From contig CAZCRE010000001.1 in the NCBI GenBank assembly GCA_964501075.1, positions 10,778 to 74,777 on the forward strand: a stretch of 64,000 nt of DNA, read 5' to 3'. The DNA is from an uncultured Candidatus Bathyarchaeia archaeon. Lineage in GTDB: Archaea; Thermoproteota; Bathyarchaeia; Bathyarchaeales; Bathycorpusculaceae. The position numbers and the translations under genes are program-made. Position 1 is the first letter of the stretch; each line of letters opens with the position of its first letter. A model generated the notes under the pieces. That model did no database searches. It was not told the DNA's origin and was given only the letters and a program-made list of their open reading frames with translations. Positions 7,357 through 56,625 of the stretch are shown here, one piece after another.

Positions 7357-8607
7357 TCAGTGGGCATTGTTTGCACATTTTGACAAGCAATTTGGCACGT
7401 AATCGACTAGACGCCCGAGTCTGCCATCATTTGCAAAAACATCCTTAATAAGCCCCCGTGCTATTTCCAGCTTAATCCTTTTTGTTCGTCCATACCTTCC
7501 CATGCTTGTGACTTTAGCATTCAATAACCCCATAGAATCAAGTTCATTAACTAAGGACCCCAATCTGCGCTGTGTTAACGGCACAATTCCTACTTCACCA
7601 CAAATCTCGCTGTAGACTTCATAGATTTCTCCTGTAATAGCCTTTTGAATTTCTGCTTTGCTAAGAGTGTAAACGCTAAGGATCACAAGTTTTGAATGAA
7701 AGGTCAAGTTCTTCAAGGCTTCAAAAACACGATTGTGTTCTATGTGCTTTTCAGCCTCTCGCACATGATCTTCAACAACTACAGCAACGCCCTGTCGTTC
7801 AGCAACCTCACCAGCAACACGTAACAAATCTAGAGCTCGCCTAGCGTCGCCATGCTCTGCCGCTGCCAACGCTGAGCAGAGGTTGAGTGCAGACTCAGAC
7901 AAAGTGCATTCATGAAATGAGAGACTAGAGCGCTCTGAAAGAATATTCCTCAGCTCATTAGCATCGTAGGGTCTAAAGACCATCTCCTCCTCGCTTAGGG
8001 AGCTTAGAACACGTGGATCCAGTAACTCCTTCAGTCGCAAGTCATTAGAGATCCCAATCAGAGAGACTTTGCTTCTGGATAAGGATTCATTGATTCTGGT
8101 TAATTCGTAGAGGAGTATATCACCACGTGCTTTTATTAATGCGTCGACCTCATCCAAGACTATGATAAGAGTAGTCTTTGAGGAATCTAATCCTGTTTGG
8201 AACCTGTCAAAGACTTCGCCAGCAGAAAGCCCCGTGAATGGAACCGCTACACCTACGTTTTGGCAAAGGCTAGCAAAAATCCGGTATTCTGAACCCACTA
8301 TTCTGCAATTGACATAACAGAATCTGATAGGTGCACTGAATTCTTTAGCCTTGGCTTCCAAGTGATTCAGAACATATTTTACTACGGCAGTTTTGCCTGT
8401 ACCAGTCTTCCCATAAATAATTATGTTTGAGCTCCTCGCACCACGCAATACCGGCGCAATCGTCTCACCCAATTGCCTAATCTGATCCTCTCTGTGAGGT
8501 AATTTACCGGGTACGTAATCGTGCCGAAGCACATCGCGATCTTTGAAAACCTTGGAAACATGAGTAACTCTCTCAAACACCCCATCAAGAATGTTAGTTT
8601 CAGACAT
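7357..8607 (-). CDS. cdc6: ORC1-type DNA replication initiator Orc1/Cdc6
   Basis: AAA+ Walker A (GKTGTGKT) and Walker B (LIIVLDEVD), plus a C-terminal winged helix. The gene lies directly next to ORB repeats. Confidence 0.92.
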   Translation of the reverse strand: MSETNILDGVFERVTHVSKVFKDRDVLRHDYVPGKLPHREDQIRQLGETIAPVLRGARSSNIIIYGKTGTGKTAVVKYVLNHLEAKAKEFSAPIRFCYVNCRIVGSEYRIFASLCQNVGVAVPFTGLSAGEVFDRFQTGLDSSKTTLIIVLDEVDALIKARGDILLYELTRINESLSRSKVSLIGISNDLRLKELLDPRVLSSLSEEEMVFRPYDANELRNILSERSSLSFHECTLSESALNLCSALAAAEHGDARRALDLLRVAGEVAERQGVAVVVEDHVREAEKHIEHNRVFEALKNLTFHSKLVILSVYTLSKAEIQKAITGEIYEVYSEICGEVGIVPLTQRRLGSLVNELDSMGLLNAKVTSMGRYGRTKRIKLEIARGLIKDVFANDGRLGRLVDYVPNCLSKCANNAH

Positions 8608-8750
8608 CCCTCTCCCTTCTAAATACCTTCAAAGGTAACGCCACTTCTTCGAGTGGAGAAATAAGGGCTACCATACAAAAAAATAGATTGATGGTGTAAT
8701 AATCCTAAAAGTGTCCTATACTCTCGTGTCTGATCTCAAAGTCATATGGG

Positions 8751-8775
8751 CACACCCCTCGTCGTCCACTGGAAC
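8751..8775 (-). repeat. origin recognition box ORB1
   Basis: Reverse complement is gTTCCAGTGGAcgacgaGGGGTGtg: a dyad core TCCAGTGGA plus a G-string. Confidence 0.7.
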
Positions 8776-8942
8776 TCTGTCTTTGGAATAGATTATTGGA
8801 GAATTGTTGATGATTTCTTTATGAAAGAAGCATACTCTAAAGCGTTAATCCATAGTTATCAATATAATATATCTTGTAGAGTAAAATTGATAATCACTAA
8901 AGAATTTTGTTACGGAAAGTCAAAATTGGTTGACACTTTCCG

Positions 8943-8966
8943 TTTCCACTAGAAACATTGGGGTGC
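8943..8966 (+). repeat. origin recognition box ORB2
   Basis: tTTCCACTAGAaacattGGGGTGc. It is inverted relative to ORB1, across the AT-rich segment. Confidence 0.7.
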
Positions 8967-9183
8967 CACTCACGCAATGTTAAATTGCGGATCTGAATTC
9001 ATTGGCAAACGCTATCGTGCGCCTACCTTTCTGGAAAGGTCTATTTGAGAGATAGTCTTGAACTGGCCTTTGTCATTTCTGTTTCACTATTGTGAATACC
9101 TTGTGAAGTTTACTGAAAAATGGATGTTTTCTTTCTTCTTTCCACTATTATTTAGTTATCTATGCTCTTTTTCTGTGAATTGA

Positions 9184-48391: not shown

Positions 48392-49015
48392 ATGTTCAGT
48401 GAAGACTTTGAGGGTTCTTACTTGTCCTGCAAAAGGTTTCGCGTAATAAAGCCCGAAATTCGGGTTTTAGGAGTTGATGATGGATTCTTCATTCCTCATT
48501 CAAGGAGTTTTGCGCCTATCGTCGGCGTTGTTTTCCGTGGCGGATACTGGCTTGACGGTGTGATGCACACAAGAGTAGAAGTGGACGGACTAGATGCCAC
48601 GGACAAGATAGCTTCTATGATTATTAACTCACCCCACAACAAGCAGCTGAGAGTCATAATGCTCAACGGCGTGACTTTTGCGGGCTTCAATGTCGTTGAC
48701 ATTAGAGACCTCAATTTGAAAACAAAACTTCCTGTCATAGCCGTGGTACGTGAAAAGCCCGACTTTTCAGAAATCTACAGCGCGCTGAAAAACCTGCCGA
48801 AAAGCGAAGAGCGGTGGGAGGTCATCAAAGGCACTGGGAAACCGTTCATGGTAAATACGCGAAGTAGGCGTGCTAAAGTCTATGTGCAAGCTTGCGGCAT
48901 CTTCGAGGACGATGCGCGGAAAATCGTGAAGGCGACTTCTACTCGAAGCGACATTCCCGAACCGTTACGTGTGGCACACTTGATTGCGTCTGGAGTGAGC
49001 ACCGAGGCTGTTTAG
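48392..49015 (+). CDS. UPF0215/DUF99 family protein
   Basis: RVLGVDDGFF...VGVVFRGGYWLDGV...VDGLDAT...IMLNGVTFAGFNVVD pattern. Confidence 0.7.
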   Translation: MFSEDFEGSYLSCKRFRVIKPEIRVLGVDDGFFIPHSRSFAPIVGVVFRGGYWLDGVMHTRVEVDGLDATDKIASMIINSPHNKQLRVIMLNGVTFAGFNVVDIRDLNLKTKLPVIAVVREKPDFSEIYSALKNLPKSEERWEVIKGTGKPFMVNTRSRRAKVYVQACGIFEDDARKIVKATSTRSDIPEPLRVAHLIASGVSTEAV

Positions 49016-49094
49016 CTTTGGCCTTTATGTCAACAAGAAAAGGTTTAAAAGACACTATGCCAAGGAAAAACAAACGACAACGGAGCAATAACTT

Positions 49095-49445
49095 ATGGAA
49101 TTTTGTCCAAAATGTGGTTCTCGTCTTGTACCCAAGAAAGCGAAAAACGGCAAAGATGCGACATTAGTCATGATCTGCCCGAAATGTGGCTACAAGAAGA
49201 AAGCAGCGGACAAGATTGAGCCGAAACCAATCAAAGCCGTCCAGACTAACCCACGGCAACTCGTTGCAGTAATCAGCAAAGAGGAGCAAAAGCTGAGAAC
49301 ACTGCCCACCGTAAGGATCGAGTGCCCCAAATGCGGCAACAACGTGGCCTATGTTTGGCAAGTGCAGACGAGAGGCGCCGATGAGTCTTCGACGCAGTTC
49401 TTGCGATGCACGAAGTGCAGCTACACATTCAGAGAATACTCATAG
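49095..49445 (+). CDS. tfs: transcription factor S (TFS; RNAP subunit M-like cleavage factor)
   Basis: N-terminal ribbon CPKCGS...CPKCG. C-terminal ribbon CPKCGN...QVQTRGADESSTQFLRCTKCS with the acidic DE hairpin. Its last 14 codons plus stop coincide with attL. Confidence 0.9.
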   Translation: MEFCPKCGSRLVPKKAKNGKDATLVMICPKCGYKKKAADKIEPKPIKAVQTNPRQLVAVISKEEQKLRTLPTVRIECPKCGNNVAYVWQVQTRGADESSTQFLRCTKCSYTFREYS

Positions 49446-49446
49446 A
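49403..49446 (+). repeat. attL (left direct repeat)
   Basis: gcgatgcacGaagtgcagctacacattcagagaaTactcataga; overlaps the tfs C-terminus and stop. Confidence 0.8.
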
Positions 49447-50337
49447 CTTTCAGATTTTGCTAAAGGAAATATTCTCAAGCTAGCTTTTGAGCTTAGAAAC
49501 AGGGGCTACTCTGAGTCTTACTTGAAGACTTTGATTACTGCTTTGAATCATGTCGCTTCGAGAGTCGACGTTGAAGACACTTCAGCAGTCTTAGAACTCG
49601 TGGCAAAAGCGAAATGGAGAGACAGCTACAAAGCTAACTTGTGCGATTTCTACAGTCACTACTGCAAGTTCTACAACATCGCTTTCTCTAAGCCGAGGTA
49701 CAGAAAAGATCACAAAATTCCGAGGGTGCCGAGTGAAGAGAAGATTAATCTGATAATTGGGCACGCATCGAAGAAATACGCGATAATCTACAAAATCGCT
49801 ATGGAATGCGGGCTAAGACCGGTTGAGATTGGCGATTTGACTCTGAACGACATAGATTTGGTCAAAGGAATAATCTCAGTCTGCTCTGCGAAGCATGGCA
49901 ATCCGAGGGTTCTGAAGTTGAAAGACGAGACTCATGCTATGCTGAAGAAGTACGTCGGCGAGCACAAGTTCGGCTTGAATGACAGACTGTTTCCGTCGGG
50001 GGCTGTTATCAGCAACACGTATGAGAGACTGAAAGCTTCGCTGTCTAAGAAGCTTTGCGATTCTGAGCTGAAGAAGATTCGACTCTACGACTTGCGACAC
50101 TACTATGCAACGATGCTCTACTACAAGACTAAAGACATACTTCTAGTGAAAGAAAAGCTCGGACACAGAAACATCAATAACACTCTGATTTACACGCATC
50201 TCGTAAACTTCAATGAGAATGAAGAGTTCTACAGCGCGACAGCAAAAGCAGTTGACGAAGCAGCGAAGCTCATAGAGCAGGGCTTTGACTTCGTGTGCGA
50301 CTTGGACGGAGTGAAGCTGTTCAGGAAGCGGAAGTAG
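49403..50337 (+). CDS. int: tyrosine recombinase, C-terminal catalytic fragment Int(C) of a split integrase
   Basis: Catalytic-type motifs GLRPVEI (Arg), LYDLRHYYAT (HxxR) and LGHRNINNTLIYTH (His...Tyr). The reading frame is open through attL into tfs with no credible start of its own. The track ORF start at 49351 lies inside tfs. Confidence 0.8.
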
Positions 50338-50770
50338 ATACTCAATTCCCTTTTTTCTCTGTTTACATAACGTAAGCTTAGTAGACTGCACTTAATCTCT
50401 ACAAACGCCCGCTGAAGGGTATTTTTGTCTTATTAGGGATTGATTGGCGAAACAGAGCTTTGAACGTATGAGCTGGGGCTACAGTTGGGTTTTCCCTGCA
50501 TTCGTCAGGTTTTGGAAGAGTCTAATCGAAAAGTATGGTTTCAAACAAGCCTTGTTCTTATGGAGCAAATTGCTTTGTAGTCCATTTGTCGTCACTCGCC
50601 AAGTGAGGTTGACTAGGTTCTTGCCTGAGTATGAGCATATGAATACAAAGAGTCTGCCTTGGGGTGCACTGTTTCGCACTTCTTTTGAATAATATGTGCG
50701 TGCACCTGACTGAAGCTGTTGGTAACATTCATTAGCCAAACTAAGTTATTATCCACTGAGGTGCGTTTGT

Positions 50771-52150
50771 GTGAAACCAATAGTTGTAAATGAGAGACCT
50801 AAAGATCATGATCCTGAGGACTGCCGAGTTCCAGGGTGCGAAAGATGTAAACTGGATGTACCTTTTAAGCTGCCATCGCAAATTGTCAAGGCACATAAGA
50901 ATGGCGATCTCGTTATTTTTGCAGGTGCCGGCGTGAGCACGGAAAGTGAAGGGATTTTTCCACACGATTTTTATGAAGAAATCAGAAGAGAAGTGAAAAT
51001 CCCAGGAGAAAAAAAGGTCAGTTTTCCGGATTTGATGAGCCTCTATTGCTCAGCGCCGCGAAGTCGCAAAGACCTTTTGCTTCTCATAAAGAAGCGAATC
51101 GATGAAGTCAAAGCCTATCCTGAATTATATAACTTTGCAGCGGAATTTCATCGAGAAATTGCAACCGTTCCTCACTTAAATGAGATATTTACGACCAATT
51201 GGGATGATTTTTTTGAAAGAGAGTGTGATGCGACACCGGTGGTAACGAGTCAGGATTTCGCAGTCGTTCAAGACACCCCAGGAAGGAAGGTCTTTAAGCT
51301 ACATGGTTCGATTTACAACTATGGTTCGATAGTAGCCACAAAAAAAGACTATGAAAAGTGCTACAGAAGACTTTCCACTAGCATAATTGGCGCTAATCTC
51401 AAAATTCTTCTGATGTCCAAGACTCTGGTCTTCGTTGGTTTTTCCTTTGACGATGAAGACTTTCTCAGGCTTTATCGCCTTCTGAAGAAGGAAGTTGGGG
51501 GTATGCTTCCACAGTGTTACGTTGTGACCTTGGACAAGAAGGCAAAAAGAAAGCTTGAAGAACTCGATATCGAGGCAATCCCGATTCTGACTGGAGCTAC
51601 TTACTTCGTTAAGAACCTCAAGAAGAGACTAGTTCAAGAAGGTACCATGTTGCCTGATTCACAATTTCTAGGCATTCCAGAGATGCTTAAAGTTCTTTTT
51701 TCGGAAAGCGAGAAGATTCAAAAGTTGAGTTTGAAAGAACACCCAGATCTACTTTATACGGTAGCATATGAGAACGGATTCATGCATGCTCTTAATCGAA
51801 TAGCTATGACTAGAAACTCGGGCGAATACGGTTGTGGTCCACATATATTTGCTATGATTAAGTCGTTTGACCCCTCAATTAAGACAGCCTTGCGGAAAAA
51901 GCATTACGTTCAAGCTGCTTTACTCACTGGATTTCAGGCGGGTCTTGTGTTTTACCTCTCAAGTCCTGAAGATCGAAAGAAAGTACCACTATACTATATG
52001 CATGGCTGCAAGGAAGAGATTATGAATGTCGAGCAATGCATAAAGCTTGAAAAAAAAGCAGCGTCCTCAAATAAACTGGCGCATGACCAAGCCAAAAAAG
52101 AGGTCAGAGGGATTCCTAAAGGCATTTTTATTCATTATCCACCGTTTTAA
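50771..52150 (+). CDS. SIR2-like (SIR2_2) domain protein with unrecognised ~170-aa C-terminal domain; candidate NADase defence effector
   Basis: DLVIFAGAGVS (GAGxS NAD loop), IFTTNWDDFFE (TTNxD, catalytic Asn) and VFKLHGSI (catalytic His). GTG start with GAGGTG 8 nt upstream. Confidence 0.75.
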   Translation: MKPIVVNERPKDHDPEDCRVPGCERCKLDVPFKLPSQIVKAHKNGDLVIFAGAGVSTESEGIFPHDFYEEIRREVKIPGEKKVSFPDLMSLYCSAPRSRKDLLLLIKKRIDEVKAYPELYNFAAEFHREIATVPHLNEIFTTNWDDFFERECDATPVVTSQDFAVVQDTPGRKVFKLHGSIYNYGSIVATKKDYEKCYRRLSTSIIGANLKILLMSKTLVFVGFSFDDEDFLRLYRLLKKEVGGMLPQCYVVTLDKKAKRKLEELDIEAIPILTGATYFVKNLKKRLVQEGTMLPDSQFLGIPEMLKVLFSESEKIQKLSLKEHPDLLYTVAYENGFMHALNRIAMTRNSGEYGCGPHIFAMIKSFDPSIKTALRKKHYVQAALLTGFQAGLVFYLSSPEDRKKVPLYYMHGCKEEIMNVEQCIKLEKKAASSNKLAHDQAKKEVRGIPKGIFIHYPPF

Positions 52151-52586
52151 TTTAATAGAGATAGAACTCTTAACGGAGAACGTGCGGTTCTCGTTCCGGA
52201 AAACGGTCTCGCTCGCATCGTTGGGAGTTTTGCGAGAGCAAAGTGTCTCTACAGCGCGGGCTAGCATATCACTCTGCAAACCTGAAAAACGCTGCTGCGG
52301 AAAAATCTTTCAGGCAGAATCATTCGATGGATTTGGCTTAAGCTGTTGAAAACCAAAACAGGGATTTTCCCCTATACTGTACTGTATATGGGGTTTTCAC
52401 TGTTTTGAAATGCTCTTAGAGAGTTGCTGACTGCGCTTTCAAAAATCTTCGAGGATAAGACTTTACCCCAAAACCCAAACACAAACACACAAAAAGCAAC
52501 TTGTGTGGTTCAATTGAGTTTCAATCTTTACAGGGTATTCATAATCCTTATCGCGCTAGCAGAGATCAAATAGTAGTCTGGTTGGT

Positions 52587-53069
52587 ATGTATCGCCGTCG
52601 AAGAAGTGCGCCTCTCAAATTCGAAAAAGCCTATGAAATGCGACACAATCCGACACCAGCAGAGGCGCGCATGTGGGAAATCATAAAGGGTCAAATGATA
52701 CCTAATTTTCCAAATCATATCTTCTACCGACAGTCCGTGCAATTTGGCTACATATTGGACTTTTACTGTCCAACATTGCGACTAGGCATAGAAGTAGACG
52801 GTGCCATACATAACGAAAGAAAATGGTATGATTGGCAAAAAGACACCAATCTAGCACGTAGGCAAATACAAATGTACCGATTTAGCAATGTGGATGTCTT
52901 CAACAACCCGCAGGGTGTCGCCACTCGACTCTTTCAAATCATACAAGACAAAACGATGCCTTGGTATGCAACGAGTCATGCATCAGCGCTTCCCAATCAG
53001 AAAGACTGCAAAATGATACAAGAGAAATCGACGCCTTGGTATAAGAAAATCTTCAGATTCCTAGTGTAA
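52587..53069 (+). CDS. DUF559 (Vsr/restriction-endonuclease-fold) domain protein
   Basis: NPTPAEARMWEII...FYRQSVQFGYILDFYCPTLRLGIEVDGAIHN...D..L.......RFSN matches the DUF559 layout (D...E-x-D/K core). Confidence 0.7.
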   Translation: MYRRRRSAPLKFEKAYEMRHNPTPAEARMWEIIKGQMIPNFPNHIFYRQSVQFGYILDFYCPTLRLGIEVDGAIHNERKWYDWQKDTNLARRQIQMYRFSNVDVFNNPQGVATRLFQIIQDKTMPWYATSHASALPNQKDCKMIQEKSTPWYKKIFRFLV

Positions 53070-53247
53070 TGCGCGCAATTCTTGGAATCCACGTTTGCTT
53101 TTCGTCTCTCAGATACTTAGCGCGCGCTATCAATATCTCTGAAAGCTGAGGCGCGGTCAAACTAACGCAAGGATCAAGTTTGGTTTACAAGAGAGGCTAA
53201 AACACGGTCAGCGCGCGCAGAACGCTGTTCACAATCGAAGATGGGAG

Positions 53248-55281
53248 TTATGGAGGGAGAGGGTTAGTCACGGAGTTCGCTGAGTCACTTTTAGCACGCC
53301 TTTTCCTTAGCGCGCGCCACCTGAAGATCACAGCTAGGGAAATGACTACGGCCGACACGACTACGCCCAATAAGTAGTAAATAGAGAAGCTAGGTGCAAA
53401 GACGCTAGGCATAACCGTAAATGTTAGGGTTTCGCTTTCGCACATGTTCCGCGCATAATCATTCGGTATGATCGCCGCCACTTTCCATACGCCATCCTCA
53501 AAAAGCGTAGGCGTGTCACTGAACCCCCCCATTCCATCTGTCGTCACGATTCTCGTAAACGTCTCACCGTCTGGTTTCTGATAATTCAGCGTCACCTCCA
53601 AGCCCGGAAATGCCGTCAGATTCCCTTCTACCCTTATGTGAGCAACTCCGTTGACCGTAACGTTTGAACCTGATGCCGTCTCGTTTTTTGGCAGCGAGAT
53701 TGTGACCTGCGTGTCGTACTTGTTGATGGGCGGAAGCACCTCTATCTTTCTGCGAAAGCCAGGGATGCCCTCTCCAGAAACTTCCACGTAGTATACACCT
53801 GTCTTGGCAGACGGATAGACTTCTATCCGATTGTTGACATAGCTTGAACCGCCGATCACAAAGACGGCTCCGCAACCATAATGCATAAACTTTGGGCATA
53901 CCACGACATGATAATCATACATCATCGACACGCTGCCATACACTTTGATCTTCGCTTCCTCGCCGATCCTTATCGGATAGCCACCAACAATGAGTGTTTC
54001 CATGCTCTCAGCTTCCCAATGATCCACATCACCAAGCCACGCCGCCTTCATCGTCCAATTTCCGGCTGCATCCGGCGCGAAATTGTCAACGTAGGTACCG
54101 TTGGCAGATGTCTCAACAGACTTGCTAGTGACAGTGCCGTCGGGCTTGGTATAGGTTAGTGTGATGTCTGCCCCAGCGACAGGCGGATCTAGGGAGATCG
54201 AAACCGACAGCGTCTCCCCTGGAATGATCTGCCAGTCCCCTTTGTCGAGAGTTAGACGAAGGGCTACTGACTTCAGTATCTCAAGGAAGCGTATGCAGCC
54301 GTCGCTTCCCCCAGTACATGCAAATTTACCATCCGCAGAAATGGCCACGTCCTTAAACCGAACATCTCCATCACCGGAGGAATATGCGGAGTACTGCGTG
54401 CCATCCCCATTAAGAAATACTAGTCCGTAGAACTGCGTCAACGCTATGCGGTTTTGGCTCACTGAAATCGAGTCAGGTCTAGGAATGTTCTCCTTGCTCC
54501 AGCTCACTCTTCCGTTCCCATCAAGACAAAGAAGAGAAGTCGGACCGTAAAGTGCCGCCACCAGATAATCGCCATTGGGCGAGACACCAATCATTTTTTC
54601 TTCGCCCATAATGAAGAAGCTCATGTTTAGTTTGTAGCTCCACAACACCATCCCCCTATCGTCAAGGAAGTAAATCTCATCATTGGTGCAAGCTGCTATG
54701 CGTTCACCACTAGAAGATACAGAGACTTGGTACACGCTTGCGTTTAGCTCTTGCTTCCAAATTCTGTCACCAGTGATATTGAAAAGCGCGACGCTTTGGC
54801 CGTCACCTGCGATTATGTACCTGCCGTCTGATGAAATCTCTATATCACCGTACGCAGGGCTATCAAGCAAACGCTTTTTCCACAGTATTTGCCCTTCCCT
54901 ATTAAAGAGGGAAACATTACAATCGTCTTTTTCAAGTATGGCGACCGAGCTGGCATCACCGGAAATCGAAATCGATATATCACCCTGAAGAGCTGAGTAA
55001 GACTTATTCCACAAAAGATTCCCCCCCTCTCCTAAGAGAAGGATATCTGCATCGAAAAGACCACGATATACCAAAGCCGCTACATAGCTGCCATCCGCCG
55101 AAAAACAAACACGCTCAACCTCTGCACCCGTAGGGTACTTCCAGAAAACCGAAACAGATGCCTCAACTGCGACGGTCGCCAACAAACACAACAAGACTGC
55201 AACCGCGAATAGTCGAATATGGGCCTTCCTCCATCCGCGTGTGCCCAAGAAGACTATCCATAAGGTTTCTATCGAAGCCAC
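53248..55281 (-). CDS. cell-surface protein: N-terminal signal/TM, PQQ/WD-like beta-propeller, Ig-like repeats, C-terminal TM anchor
   Basis: Repeats of the S(A/S)DG.Y(I/V)..., ...LW.(K/Y) type, many N-x-S/T sequons, and a terminal VVSAVVISLAVIF plus basic tail RWRALRKRRAK. Confidence 0.7.
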   Translation of the reverse strand: MASIETLWIVFLGTRGWRKAHIRLFAVAVLLCLLATVAVEASVSVFWKYPTGAEVERVCFSADGSYVAALVYRGLFDADILLLGEGGNLLWNKSYSALQGDISISISGDASSVAILEKDDCNVSLFNREGQILWKKRLLDSPAYGDIEISSDGRYIIAGDGQSVALFNITGDRIWKQELNASVYQVSVSSSGERIAACTNDEIYFLDDRGMVLWSYKLNMSFFIMGEEKMIGVSPNGDYLVAALYGPTSLLCLDGNGRVSWSKENIPRPDSISVSQNRIALTQFYGLVFLNGDGTQYSAYSSGDGDVRFKDVAISADGKFACTGGSDGCIRFLEILKSVALRLTLDKGDWQIIPGETLSVSISLDPPVAGADITLTYTKPDGTVTSKSVETSANGTYVDNFAPDAAGNWTMKAAWLGDVDHWEAESMETLIVGGYPIRIGEEAKIKVYGSVSMMYDYHVVVCPKFMHYGCGAVFVIGGSSYVNNRIEVYPSAKTGVYYVEVSGEGIPGFRRKIEVLPPINKYDTQVTISLPKNETASGSNVTVNGVAHIRVEGNLTAFPGLEVTLNYQKPDGETFTRIVTTDGMGGFSDTPTLFEDGVWKVAAIIPNDYARNMCESETLTFTVMPSVFAPSFSIYYLLGVVVSAVVISLAVIFRWRALRKRRAKSDSANSVTNPLPP

Positions 55282-55422
55282 CCCTTAAGAAAGCGAGGCA
55301 TTCCTTTCCCTAATCTATATTGGTTGCACCAATAGATATCATTTTTGGAAGACTCTTTTAAAACAATTAGCATGGAGCATAAGCTCATAGAGAGAAACTT
55401 TTTTAAGCCCAGAATGTGCATA

Positions 55423-55428
55423 TTTATA
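55423..55428 (+). promoter_or_regulatory. TATA-box candidate for the split integrase gene
   Basis: tttata lies about 20 nt upstream of the Int(N) ATG at 55446, consistent with a short-leader or leaderless archaeal transcript. Confidence 0.35.
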
Positions 55429-55445
55429 CCAAAAGAGGAATAGAA

Positions 55446-55547
55446 ATGGCTGAAAATGAAAAAGAGGCTAGAAATTTTGGCGATGCACTAAGTGCAGCTA
55501 CACATTCAGAGAACACTCATAGAATTCATGTTCAAAAATACGCATAG
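55446..55547 (+). CDS. int: Int(N): N-terminal fragment of the split integrase
   Basis: ATG at 55446 gives MAENEKEARNFGDALSAATHSENTHR, then runs out of attR into flanking DNA and stops at 55547. The residues SAATHSENTHR are shared with the frame entering Int(C) at attL. Confidence 0.7.
   Translation: MAENEKEARNFGDALSAATHSENTHRIHVQKYA
55480..55523 (+). repeat. attR (right direct repeat)
   Basis: gcgatgcacTaagtgcagctacacattcagagaaCactcataga. In the tfs frame it still reads CTKCSYTFREHS-stop. Confidence 0.8.
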
Positions 55548-55629
55548 ATGATTCTATTACTTTTTTGATAATTGGTTGGGACTCAAATATGGCTGCTGGC
55601 CTCCAACCAGCAAGCTATAAAAGTGTTAG

Positions 55630-56199
55630 TTAGGCCATTCTTTCTTGTCCGATGTGCTCTCTGTGAGACTGTTTCTTCTTTGGGATCGTTATCTTGAGTA
55701 CTCCGTTTTTGCATTCAGACGTCATAGAATTCGTGTCTAGGTTGCTCTTTGGCAGTTCTATGATCTTGTAGAAGTTCTTGGCTTTCACCTCAAGACCGTC
55801 TTCTCTGAAGTGCAATTGTATGTCTTCCTTTTCCTCTCCAGGCAATTCAACATAGATTTTTGTGGCGTCTTCTTCGTTGAAGATATCTGTTAATGGTTCC
55901 CGTATGTCTTTTGCTTCATTCTTTGAGAGTTCAAAAGGATTCTCGGGCAATGGTCTTCGTCTTGGTGGTTTCAACGGTTCAATCGGTTCTAGCGATTCGT
56001 TGAAGCCAAAGCGGCCTTGTATGATGAAGCCTTTTGCTTGTGGCTCATTGATTTCTCTGGTTTCCCAGGCGCCTTTGATTTTCCCGCTTGTTATTTCTCT
56101 GAACATCTCGTCTATTTCTTTCTGAAATCGTTTCATGAGTCTTCTGTTCAATGTGTCCAAGTCTTCAAACATATCGTCAAAATCATCACTAAATGCCAA
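55630..56199 (-). CDS. Hsp20/alpha-crystallin family small heat-shock protein
   Basis: KIYVELPGEEKEDIQL...GLEVKA...NGVLKITIPKK alpha-crystallin pattern. Confidence 0.75.
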   Translation of the reverse strand: MAFSDDFDDMFEDLDTLNRRLMKRFQKEIDEMFREITSGKIKGAWETREINEPQAKGFIIQGRFGFNESLEPIEPLKPPRRRPLPENPFELSKNEAKDIREPLTDIFNEEDATKIYVELPGEEKEDIQLHFREDGLEVKAKNFYKIIELPKSNLDTNSMTSECKNGVLKITIPKKKQSHREHIGQERMA

Positions 56200-56205
56200 C
56201 GTGCT

Positions 56206-56625
56206 TCACCTCCTGTCGTCCTCGATCTCTTGAACAGACTCCATCAAACGGTGCAATGCTAGGCTCATCATCATGAATGCCGTCCGCCCAAAATCTGAAC
56301 AGCTATACTTTCCTCGGCTCGTCTTTTCCAGAAGTCCGCCTTCTTCGAGTTTCCGTGAGTTCTCCCAGACAATCTTCGGGTTCAAATCCAGTTCTTTCAT
56401 GAAGCCTGTAAAACTGATTGTCTGGCTTTCCTCTTCGATCAATTGCTTCATCATTCTCAAGCGTGTTTCATGTGACAGAGCGTCAAAGATCTTTGAGAAC
56501 TTATCGAAGTCTTCTTCAGCTGCCTTGAACTCGTTTTCCAGATCCTCTTTCGGCCAATCTACTGGAGAAAGGGGCACCTCAAACACTGTTTTTCCATCTT
56601 GCATGAGCTTCAGTCTTAACTTCAT
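56206..56625 (-). CDS. ArsR-like winged-helix regulator, co-transcribed with hsp20
   Basis: FDALSHETRLRMMKQL...FMKELDLNPKIVWENSRKLEEGGLLEK is an ArsR-type wHTH. There is a 6-nt gap to the hsp20 start. Confidence 0.65.
   Translation of the reverse strand: MKLRLKLMQDGKTVFEVPLSPVDWPKEDLENEFKAAEEDFDKFSKIFDALSHETRLRMMKQLIEEESQTISFTGFMKELDLNPKIVWENSRKLEEGGLLEKTSRGKYSCSDFGRTAFMMMSLALHRLMESVQEIEDDRR

Follow-up and report, generated by a model that had tools for sequence, protein, structure and literature searches.

We analysed a 64,000-nucleotide stretch of the genome of an uncultured Candidatus Bathyarchaeia archaeon (contig CAZCRE010000001.1, positions 10,778 to 74,777), referred to here as the window. 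The proteins encoded in the window are archaeal and include PCNA, PriL, TFS, Csl4, RpoL and phosphoenolpyruvate synthase. Next to the transcription factor gene tfs lies an integrated element of 6.1 kb whose gene content consists of a tyrosine integrase, a 459-residue SIR2 protein, a DUF559 protein and a surface protein, without replication or virion genes (Table 1). The SIR2 protein is the subject of this analysis. It has three parts, namely an N-terminal zinc-knuckle-like motif, a SIR2_2 (SIRim) domain that is predicted to be an NAD+ glycohydrolase (NADase), and an all-helical C-terminal domain (CTD), and we refer to it as the SIR2-CTD protein.

Table 1. Features of the SIR2-CTD gene and of the element that carries it. 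Coordinates are window positions, except in the last three rows, where they are positions in the named locus.
Feature	Coordinates	Strand	Basis or remark
Tyrosine integrase	49351..50337	+	Phage_integrase PF00589 E=5e-20; PHROG integrase E=1.6e-27
attL, left copy of 52-nt direct repeat	49398..49449	+	Covers 3' end of tfs (TFS/RPB9) and its stop codon
Shine-Dalgarno-like GGTG	50760..50763	+	7 nt 5' of the GTG start; read from sequence
SIR2-CTD gene	50771..52150	+	GTG start, stop included, 459 residues; open reading frame listing
Zinc-knuckle-like motif H13-x4-C18-x4-C23-x2-C26	50807..50848	+	Conservation in 76 sequences
SIR2_2 / SIRim domain, residues ~36-289	50876..51637	+	Pfam, PADLOC, PDB sequence matches, Foldseek; predicted NADase
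N143 codon	51197-51199	+	Predicted catalytic residue
H178 codon	51302-51304	+	Predicted catalytic residue
Family-specific all-helical CTD, residues 290-459	51638..52147	+	Domain-only AlphaFold2 model, conserved motifs
Changed codons 334/335	51770-51775		Altered in the window's copy
Changed codon 354	51830-51832		Altered in the window's copy
Changed codon 366	51866-51868		Altered in the window's copy
Changed codon 384	51920-51922		Altered in the window's copy
DUF559 (Vsr-like endonuclease fold) protein, element cargo	52587..53069	+	Pfam DUF559 E=7.5e-19
677-residue surface protein, element cargo	53248..55281	-	Pfam PQQ_2, WD40, Big-like
Predicted integrase 5' end in circular form	55446..55523	+	ATG at 55446, MAENEKEARNFGDALSAATHSENTHR, in frame through att
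attR, right copy of repeat	55475..55526	+	90% identical, 6,077 bp from attL
Family copy in guaA region, L082	3741-4877
Family copy in guaA region, L083	8001-9137
Family copy, L081 (Vagococcus vulneris)	8001-9137

A search of 5.8 billion proteins retrieved 581 homologues of the SIR2-CTD protein, which indicates that its open reading frame (ORF) is a real gene and not a chance ORF. The homologues are mostly 440-470 residues long, with query coverage of 95-100% down to ~40% identity, and PF13289 is the sole Pfam family found on each of them. The start position in the window agrees with the N-termini of the closest homologues. An AlphaFold2 (AF2) model of the full-length protein, built with the family alignment, had a mean predicted local distance difference test score (pLDDT) of 91 and a predicted TM-score (pTM) of 0.88, respectively. 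In this model a Rossmann domain (residues ~36-289) precedes an all-helical domain (296-445), and the chain ends in a conserved tail. Conservation figures given below refer to a family alignment of 76 sequences.

The N-terminal domain was identified as SIR2 by several searches. PF13289 (SIR2_2) matches residues 138-263 (E=7.7e-22; 78.3 bits, cutoff 24.5), and the top PADLOC match is ThsA1 (E=9e-23, 78.6 bits), whose profile of 478 positions is aligned from 11 to 237, so that only its SIR2 half is covered. A preliminary annotation made from the letters of the DNA and its translations (the sequence-only reading) had picked out three SIR2 signatures, and these are found in order as FAGAGVS (residues 50-56), TTNWDDFFE (141-149) and KLHGS (176-180), all in invariant columns. 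The invariant SIR2 columns include G52, G54, E58, R109, H127, T141, T142, N143, E149, H178, G179, S180, S225, D228 and D230, and the window's copy retains every one of these residues. The same reading had taken the catalytic Asn and His to be intact. A phmmer alignment to BcThsA (6lhx) agrees with this, placing N143 on ThsA N112 and H178 on ThsA H152, which the ThsA literature describes as the catalytic residues of ThsA, and both positions are invariant in the family.

Structural comparison led to the same class. DSSP assigned seven strands in the AF2 model (47-51, 138-141, 155-157, 173-176, 218-222, 249-253 and 270-273), and the Rossmann fold has no Cys-rich insertion or inserted zinc module. 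SIRim proteins are characterised by a seven-stranded central sheet and by the absence of an inserted Zn-binding module (PMC12700824). The SIR2-CTD protein belongs to the SIR2_2/SIRim class by all sequence and fold criteria. A Foldseek search against the PDB matched KomC, ThsA of three species and DSR2 at E-values of 6e-9 to 1e-6, each match spanning ~280 columns, that is, the SIR2 domain alone. A structure search of BFVD with the full-length model returned nothing significant. Homology thus points to an intact immune-type SIR2 enzyme core with probable NADase activity.

The CTD is the distinctive part of the protein. The sequence-only reading had described the last ~170 residues as helical and similar to nothing that could be named, and had argued that they are not a SLOG domain; both statements held up. 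An AF2 model of the CTD alone (residues 286-459, together with 24 homologous CTDs) had a pLDDT of 94.6 and a pTM of 0.91 and consists of four long helices plus shorter ones. Foldseek found no match to this model in the PDB (best E=2.1, TM-score at most 0.31), and the library searched holds full-length ThsA chains and many DSR2 chains. A CTD profile had no match among PDB sequences (best E=0.2), none of 25 family CTDs had a meaningful Pfam match, and the CTD had no match in PADLOC or NCBIfam. The region from residue 300 to 459, for which a structure search had been proposed, therefore resembles no described sensor in the PDB. SLOG was considered as a candidate and excluded, as SLOG is an alpha/beta domain, the CTD is all-alpha, there is no sequence or fold match to the ThsA C-terminus, and Foldseek did not return even the ThsA chains. 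Being all-alpha and without a fold match, the CTD is neither SLOG nor any other sensor with a solved structure.

Several CTD motifs are conserved across the family, including an MLPD linker, YQDG..H, AY..GY..G and a near-invariant C-terminal HHxPF. Y333, G336, G351 and G387 are invariant, and a polar/aromatic cluster is formed in helices 2-4 by Y333, Q334, D335, H339, S354, Y366, Y379 and Y384. The MLPD linker, the HHxPF motif and this cluster are candidate functional sites. In the models, the CTD appears tightly coupled to the SIR2 domain, as judged from the pTM of the full-length model and the conserved linker. A HMMER search with the CTD profile against 1.84 billion cluster representatives retrieved 375 proteins (313 at E<=1e-10). 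Among the best 150 of these 375, full-length matches carry the CTD at positions ~270-460 of proteins of 420-493 residues, and the shorter matches are fragments. As the CTD is always C-terminal in proteins of this length among the matches listed, it is exclusive to the SIR2-CTD architecture, and the idea that it is a module shuffled into other architectures was rejected for the best 150 matches. The CTD evolves faster than the SIR2 domain (median CTD/SIR2 identity ratio of 0.69 across the family), in line with what is seen in sensor domains, and we infer a sensing role for it.

The N-terminal Cys cluster that had been noted from the sequence (DCRVPGCERC) is present and conserved. C23 and C26, which form a CxxC, are kept in 76/76 sequences, 53/76 have H13, and 50/76 carry either C or H at position 18. 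At least two additional Cys/His residues occur no more than 14 residues upstream of the CxxC in 65/76 sequences. We read the motif as a small family-specific zinc knuckle that would bind metal.

To define the boundaries of the mobile DNA, we searched for flanking repeats. None was found in 48800-53400, whereas in 48500-56500 a single direct repeat of at least 20 nt was present, the 52-nt pair listed in Table 1. The core pattern of the repeat has two occurrences compared with zero expected, and BLASTN locates a second copy of the terminal ~45 nt of tfs at 55480-55526. Two contigs encoding an identical TFS protein (L089 and L090) represent empty sites with one copy of the repeat, and in both of them a run of genes for HSP20, an ArsR-like protein, PCNA and PriL begins 81 bp after tfs. 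In the window these HSP20-ArsR-like-PCNA-PriL genes lie 6 kb further from tfs, and alignment with the empty sites confirms the repeat. These data establish that the SIR2-CTD gene is carried on an integrated 6.1-kb element in the 3' end of tfs. The sequence-only reading had placed the gene on a small integrating element, and the integrase, the 52-nt att repeats and the two empty sites all support that placement. Given the empty sites and the att repeats, the presence of the gene is strain-variable. The insertion target is a protein-coding gene, tfs, and not a tRNA gene, and the direct repeat restores the tfs stop codon.

The integrase ORF runs through attL, and frame analysis shows that the integrase encoded after integration has a chimeric N-terminus that includes sequence from the tfs region. 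A short ORF (window 55416-55547) enters attR in the integrase frame, and the integrase of the circular form is predicted to begin with MAENEKEARNFGDALSAATHSENTHR followed by LSDFAKGN.... In this prediction attP and the 5' end of int would overlap, so that integration would swap the N-terminus of the integrase. Judging from the translation and the sequence, the integrase would be partitioned in an SSV-like manner, with a very short N-terminal piece. There were no exact matches to the circular attP junction in metagenome or viral contigs; this search is uninformative, as it needs both an exact match and an assembled episome.

Scans of the element genes and their neighbours with PADLOC, PHROGs and Pfam revealed no TIR, HerA, prokaryotic Argonaute (pAgo), STAND or other partner, as the sequence-only reading had noted for the vicinity of the gene. 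An 82-residue ORF upstream of the SIR2-CTD gene has no homologues and no family matches.

To characterise the distribution of the family, we scanned one genome per species, which identified 178 relatives. Among the best 80 of these 178, the archaeal relatives come from Bathyarchaeota (54%, 48%), Nitrosopumilaceae and Micrarchaeia. The bacterial relatives come from many lineages of the Candidate Phyla Radiation (CPR), Acidobacteriota, Gemmatimonadota, Planctomycetota, Firmicutes (Bacillus, Paenibacillus, Listeria, Enterococcus and Vagococcus), Bacteroidota and Proteobacteria. This patchy distribution across Archaea and Bacteria is a pattern of horizontal transfer.

We clustered all ORFs within 6 kb of the gene in 88 loci and searched the 150 immediate neighbours against Pfam and PADLOC. 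A conserved partner gene was rejected, as no neighbour cluster is conserved across the 88 loci. The largest cluster consists of tyrosine integrases, which are present in 11 of the 88 loci at variable positions and are thus the commonest neighbour, yet rare. The 150 immediate neighbours match 184 Pfam families, each of which occurs in at most three loci. It had been considered that the homologues might turn out to be uniformly housekeeping proteins in a conserved chromosomal context; across the 88 loci they are not uniformly housekeeping and have no conserved context. By a rough count from aggregated output, ~11-14 of the 150 immediate neighbours (~7-9%) are strong PADLOC matches, including reverse transcriptases (RT/DRT), a Type IV restriction endonuclease, HEC-05, ShosT, PDC-S02/S15/S22, CARF, PbeA and CapP. 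The SIRim clade as a whole is reported to be 12-fold enriched for antiphage neighbourhoods (10.1101/2024.09.18.613514).

Individual copies illustrate the range of contexts. In Halocella sp. SP3-1 the gene lies in a defence island, where it is flanked by a Type III restriction-modification system and by FRG and GmrSD genes. The copy on the mobilizable plasmid pCGR2 of C. glutamicum has a MobF relaxase on one side and a 999-residue N6 methylase on the other. A copy in IMG/VR lies at a provirus end, close to where the contig stops and directly next to a large serine recombinase. It is the one full-length member in 2.9 M IMG/VR contigs, and none was found in INPHARED phages, so the possibility that this is a viral gene was rejected. 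The Enterococcus quebecensis copy lies between a HamA (Hachiman) gene and guaA, and the Listeria farberi copy also adjoins guaA, which suggests an integration or defence hotspot next to guaA. In these two loci and in that of Vagococcus vulneris (L081), BLAST covers query residues 22-393 only, so the C-terminal ~70 residues diverge from the archaeal type. In two Bathyarchaeota-like loci (L004 8809-9549 and L005 6668-7408) a NucS_C/DUF7669 gene lies directly upstream of the SIR2 homologue, and its product matches PADLOC PDC-S02 (E=3e-30). This NucS_C gene is preceded by a run of small unannotated ORFs, which possibly represents a further small cassette of a mobile or defensive kind.

We compared the SIR2-CTD protein with known defence systems. 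PADLOC was run on the protein and its neighbours and gave no full match to a known system, and the family is unnamed in PADLOC v2, Pfam, NCBIfam, the PDB and the searchable literature. ThsA (SIR2-SLOG; structures compared: BcThsA 6lhx and 8bto, SeThsA 7uxt, EcThsA 8wc0) is the closest SIR2 by sequence and is among the top fold matches, with the same catalytic Asn/His and the same domain order. The two proteins are also of similar size (~476 residues for ThsA and 459 here), as the sequence-only reading had remarked. However, ThsA has an alpha/beta SLOG (STALD) domain that binds glycocyclic ADP-ribose (gcADPR), whereas the SIR2-CTD protein has an all-alpha bundle in its place and an N-terminal Cys/His knuckle in addition. 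The ThsB/TIR partner of ThsA is absent from the window locus, and none is recurrent in the 88 loci.

DSR1 and DSR2 share with the SIR2-CTD protein a single-gene organisation, an N-terminal SIR2 NADase followed by a C-terminal helical region, and matches to the SIR2 fold. The C-terminal helical region of DSR1/DSR2 directly recognises a phage protein. These proteins are much larger (~1000-1200 residues), and the SIR2-CTD protein, which had been judged far shorter, is less than half their size. The SIR2-CTD protein falls far below the cutoffs of 1400 for the NCBIfam models Dsr2 (28.6 bits) and Dsr1 (10.7 bits), with a match limited to the SIR2 core, and the CTD has no Foldseek match to the MID/CTD solenoid of DSR2. 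The nearest functional precedent is sole-Sir2, a CRISPR-supervised single SIR2 protein of ~440 residues that converts NAD+ to ADP-ribose (ADPR) in vitro and a homologue of which protects E. coli against T2/T4 (10.1101/2024.12.27.630466). It is similar in its size, in being encoded by a single gene and in having an unannotated second domain. By its description (not by sequence), sole-Sir2 has its SIR2 domain at the C-terminus and its unknown part at the N-terminus, an order that is reversed here. It also sits in type I-C cas operons, whereas 0/150 immediate neighbours of the SIR2-CTD family are strong cas matches.

KomC, from the Kongming system (HAM-SIR2), is the best Foldseek match to the SIR2 domain (9v0g_E, E=5.8e-9; 8zsf, TMt 0.70). 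It is a bare SIR2 of 264 residues that is activated via KomA/KomB and deoxyinosine triphosphate (dITP), whereas the SIR2-CTD protein adds a 170-residue CTD of its own and has no partner genes. The SIRim class, which includes vertebrate FAM118A/B, shares PF13289, the seven-stranded sheet, the absence of the sirtuin Zn module and the Asn/His pair. The class is defined by its enzyme domain, and the CTD and N-terminal knuckle mark a separate unnamed family within it. No HerA, as found in SIR2-HerA (Nezha / Gao_19), was detected near the gene or among recurrent neighbours. With respect to SPARSA, the CTD has no APAZ match and there is no pAgo neighbour, and with respect to Avs5 / SIR2-STAND the protein has no NTPase domain. 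The match to LmuA of Lamassu covers residues 137-265 only, and the element has no SMC-like partner. The match to PDC-S25 is also partial, with residues 125-231 aligned to profile positions 125-234 of 517 (E=4e-13). The SIR2-CTD protein lacks the defining features of ThsA, DSR1/2, SIR2-HerA, SPARSA, Avs5, Lamassu, KomC and PDC-S25. By analogy, its functional logic may be closest to that of DSR2 or sole-Sir2.

To our knowledge, all characterised members of the class (ThsA, DSR1/2, SIR2-HerA, SPARSA, Avs5, KomC and FAM118B) consume NAD+. The prokaryotic defence members ThsA, DSR2, Avs5 and KomC are activated by a cue, several of them via oligomer or filament assembly. FAM118B activity likewise requires filament assembly (PMC12700824). 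As members of the class consume NAD+ and the defence members are cue-activated, we propose that the SIR2-CTD protein is an autonomous single-polypeptide sensor-effector NADase for abortive infection, and we put the probability of this at roughly 55%. It is supported by the best sequence and fold matches (ThsA, KomC and DSR2), which are characterised defence NADases. In an uninfected cell, the CTD would hold the SIR2 NADase inactive. On detecting an infection cue, which could be a viral protein or a small molecule, the CTD would release the enzyme, probably via assembly of an oligomer or filament as in other defence sirtuins. The active enzyme would then deplete NAD+ and stop growth before the virus cycle ends. 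The gene would move as cargo of mobile elements, here the element in tfs. We infer the defence function from class membership and genomic context, and NADase activity, sensing by the CTD, activation by oligomerisation and the antiviral outcome are all predictions at present. A broader statement is also possible, although we rate it at somewhat less than even odds: that these proteins form an unnamed, self-contained family that joins a ThsA-like SIR2 NADase to a Zn knuckle and a new-fold sensor, is partner-free in Archaea and Bacteria and spreads on small integrative elements, plasmids and proviruses.

Several observations weigh against a sensor-effector role in abortive infection. Many of the conserved CTD residues are glycines or aromatics and could be merely structural. 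Among the archaeal copies, several stand alone between housekeeping genes and have no further defence genes around them, and the defence enrichment among neighbours comes from the rough count given above. In addition, the window's own copy is altered at 5/20 of the best-conserved CTD positions.

The NADase might instead be a toxin for maintenance of the element or for competition between elements, acting in the exclusion of plasmids or other mobile elements and not as an antiviral system proper. The occurrence of the gene on an integrative element, on a mobilizable plasmid beside a relaxase and at a provirus end would be consistent with this, as would the integrases that are its commonest, though rare, neighbours. 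Furthermore, SIR2-pAgo systems act against plasmids. However, no small antitoxin-like neighbour is conserved (the upstream 82-residue ORF has no homologues) and many chromosomal copies have no detectable mobility gene nearby, and we consider this explanation unlikely.

The alterations in the window's copy raise a different possibility, which we regard as equally improbable: that this gene is a decaying or altered passenger, in which the core is intact and the sensor has lost inducibility or has been re-tuned in a lineage-specific manner. The changes are Q334E, D335N, S354G, Y366F and Y384L. The window's copy is alone among the 76 sequences in having Q334E, D335N, S354G and Y384L, and Y366F is found in two sequences. 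The change from QD to EN at 334/335 exchanges acid and amide between neighbouring residues. A relative that is 80% identical to the window's copy (P0002) has three of the same changes, which indicates stepwise accumulation. The CTD/SIR2 identity ratio of the window's copy is 0.56, compared with the family median of 0.69, and ranks 3 of 76. On the other hand, the ORF is full-length with no frameshift and near-identical copies are present in at least three other samples, the invariant SIR2 residues are all kept, AF2 models the CTD with very high confidence, and fast change in a sensor domain is expected under an arms race. The putative CTD sensor of this Bathyarchaeal sub-lineage may be re-tuned, or it may be under relaxed constraint or decaying. 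As the CTD of the window's copy is atypically diverged and its function is predicted, candidate defence gene is an apt label.

It is less probable still that the protein is the effector of a split system, with a CTD that binds a second messenger from a distant sensor through a non-SLOG receptor in a Thoeris-like manner. The SIR2 domain is closest to that of ThsA in both the PADLOC and the PDB matches, and the conserved polar/aromatic cluster of the CTD could line a ligand pocket. However, no TIR or other signal-generating gene is recurrent in the 88 loci and none is on the element, and defence effectors almost always adjoin their sensors. The gene is alone in this respect on a 6.1-kb element, and its spread over very distant phyla argues for autonomy, as the single-protein sensor-effector reading would have it. 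Finally, we regard it as very improbable that the protein is a sirtuin of the housekeeping or regulatory kind, which would act on a cellular target as an NAD-dependent deacylase of proteins or as an ADP-ribosyltransferase. JGI pipelines label many members 'NAD-dependent SIR2 family protein deacetylase', and some archaeal copies lie among housekeeping genes. However, the protein matches PF13289 and not the canonical sirtuin family, reaches only 11.5 bits with the canonical deacylase model of NCBIfam (cutoff 221), has seven strands as in SIRims and no inserted Zn-ribbon module, and is strain-variable (empty site) and patchy, without conserved synteny.

Defence sirtuins are a major class of prokaryotic immune effectors with human relatives (FAM118/SIRanc), and the sensing of infection is their most variable and least understood aspect. 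The SIR2-CTD family offers a compact, partner-free sirtuin whose putative sensor domain is modelled with high confidence and is conserved in lineages as far apart as Bathyarchaeota and Listeria. Identifying the cue to which it responds would expand the known set of immune sensing modules and provide a minimal system for the study of SIR2 activation. If the broader statement above is correct, the CTD would be a new class of infection sensor, and its cue would have to be widespread enough to serve both Bathyarchaeota and Firmicutes. In that case the family would also be the first abortive-infection system based on NAD+ depletion to be tied to an archaeal mobile element. Immunity by NAD+ depletion would thereby reach into archaea. 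We know of few abortive-infection systems that have been characterised in archaea. The fusion of a defence sirtuin to a sensing domain is a well-known idea, and the family, the fold of the CTD and the knuckle are unnamed. The candidate is attractive for archaeal immunity and for the discovery of new sensors without being a conceptual surprise. It also shows a defence-type gene travelling on a very small element that targets the protein-coding gene tfs.

The remaining cargo of the element was also annotated. The DUF559 gene lies downstream of the SIR2-CTD gene and does not recur next to other members of the family. PADLOC weakly matches its product to DpdF, in the N-terminal part of that protein (E=7e-6), and a 32-nt sequence (52936-52967) is imperfectly repeated three times in or near the 3' end of the gene. 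The gene for the 677-residue surface protein is missing from both empty sites. This protein begins with a PQQ/WD40-like beta-propeller, has Ig-like/MG2 domains and ends in a transmembrane anchor, and it might modify the cell envelope and, perhaps, the adsorption of viruses. Elsewhere in the window, ARAGORN in bacterial mode reported no tRNA genes, and Rfam identified a tRNA at 1970-2094 on the minus strand (46 bits), which, with a span of 125 nt, is probably an intron-containing archaeal tRNA.

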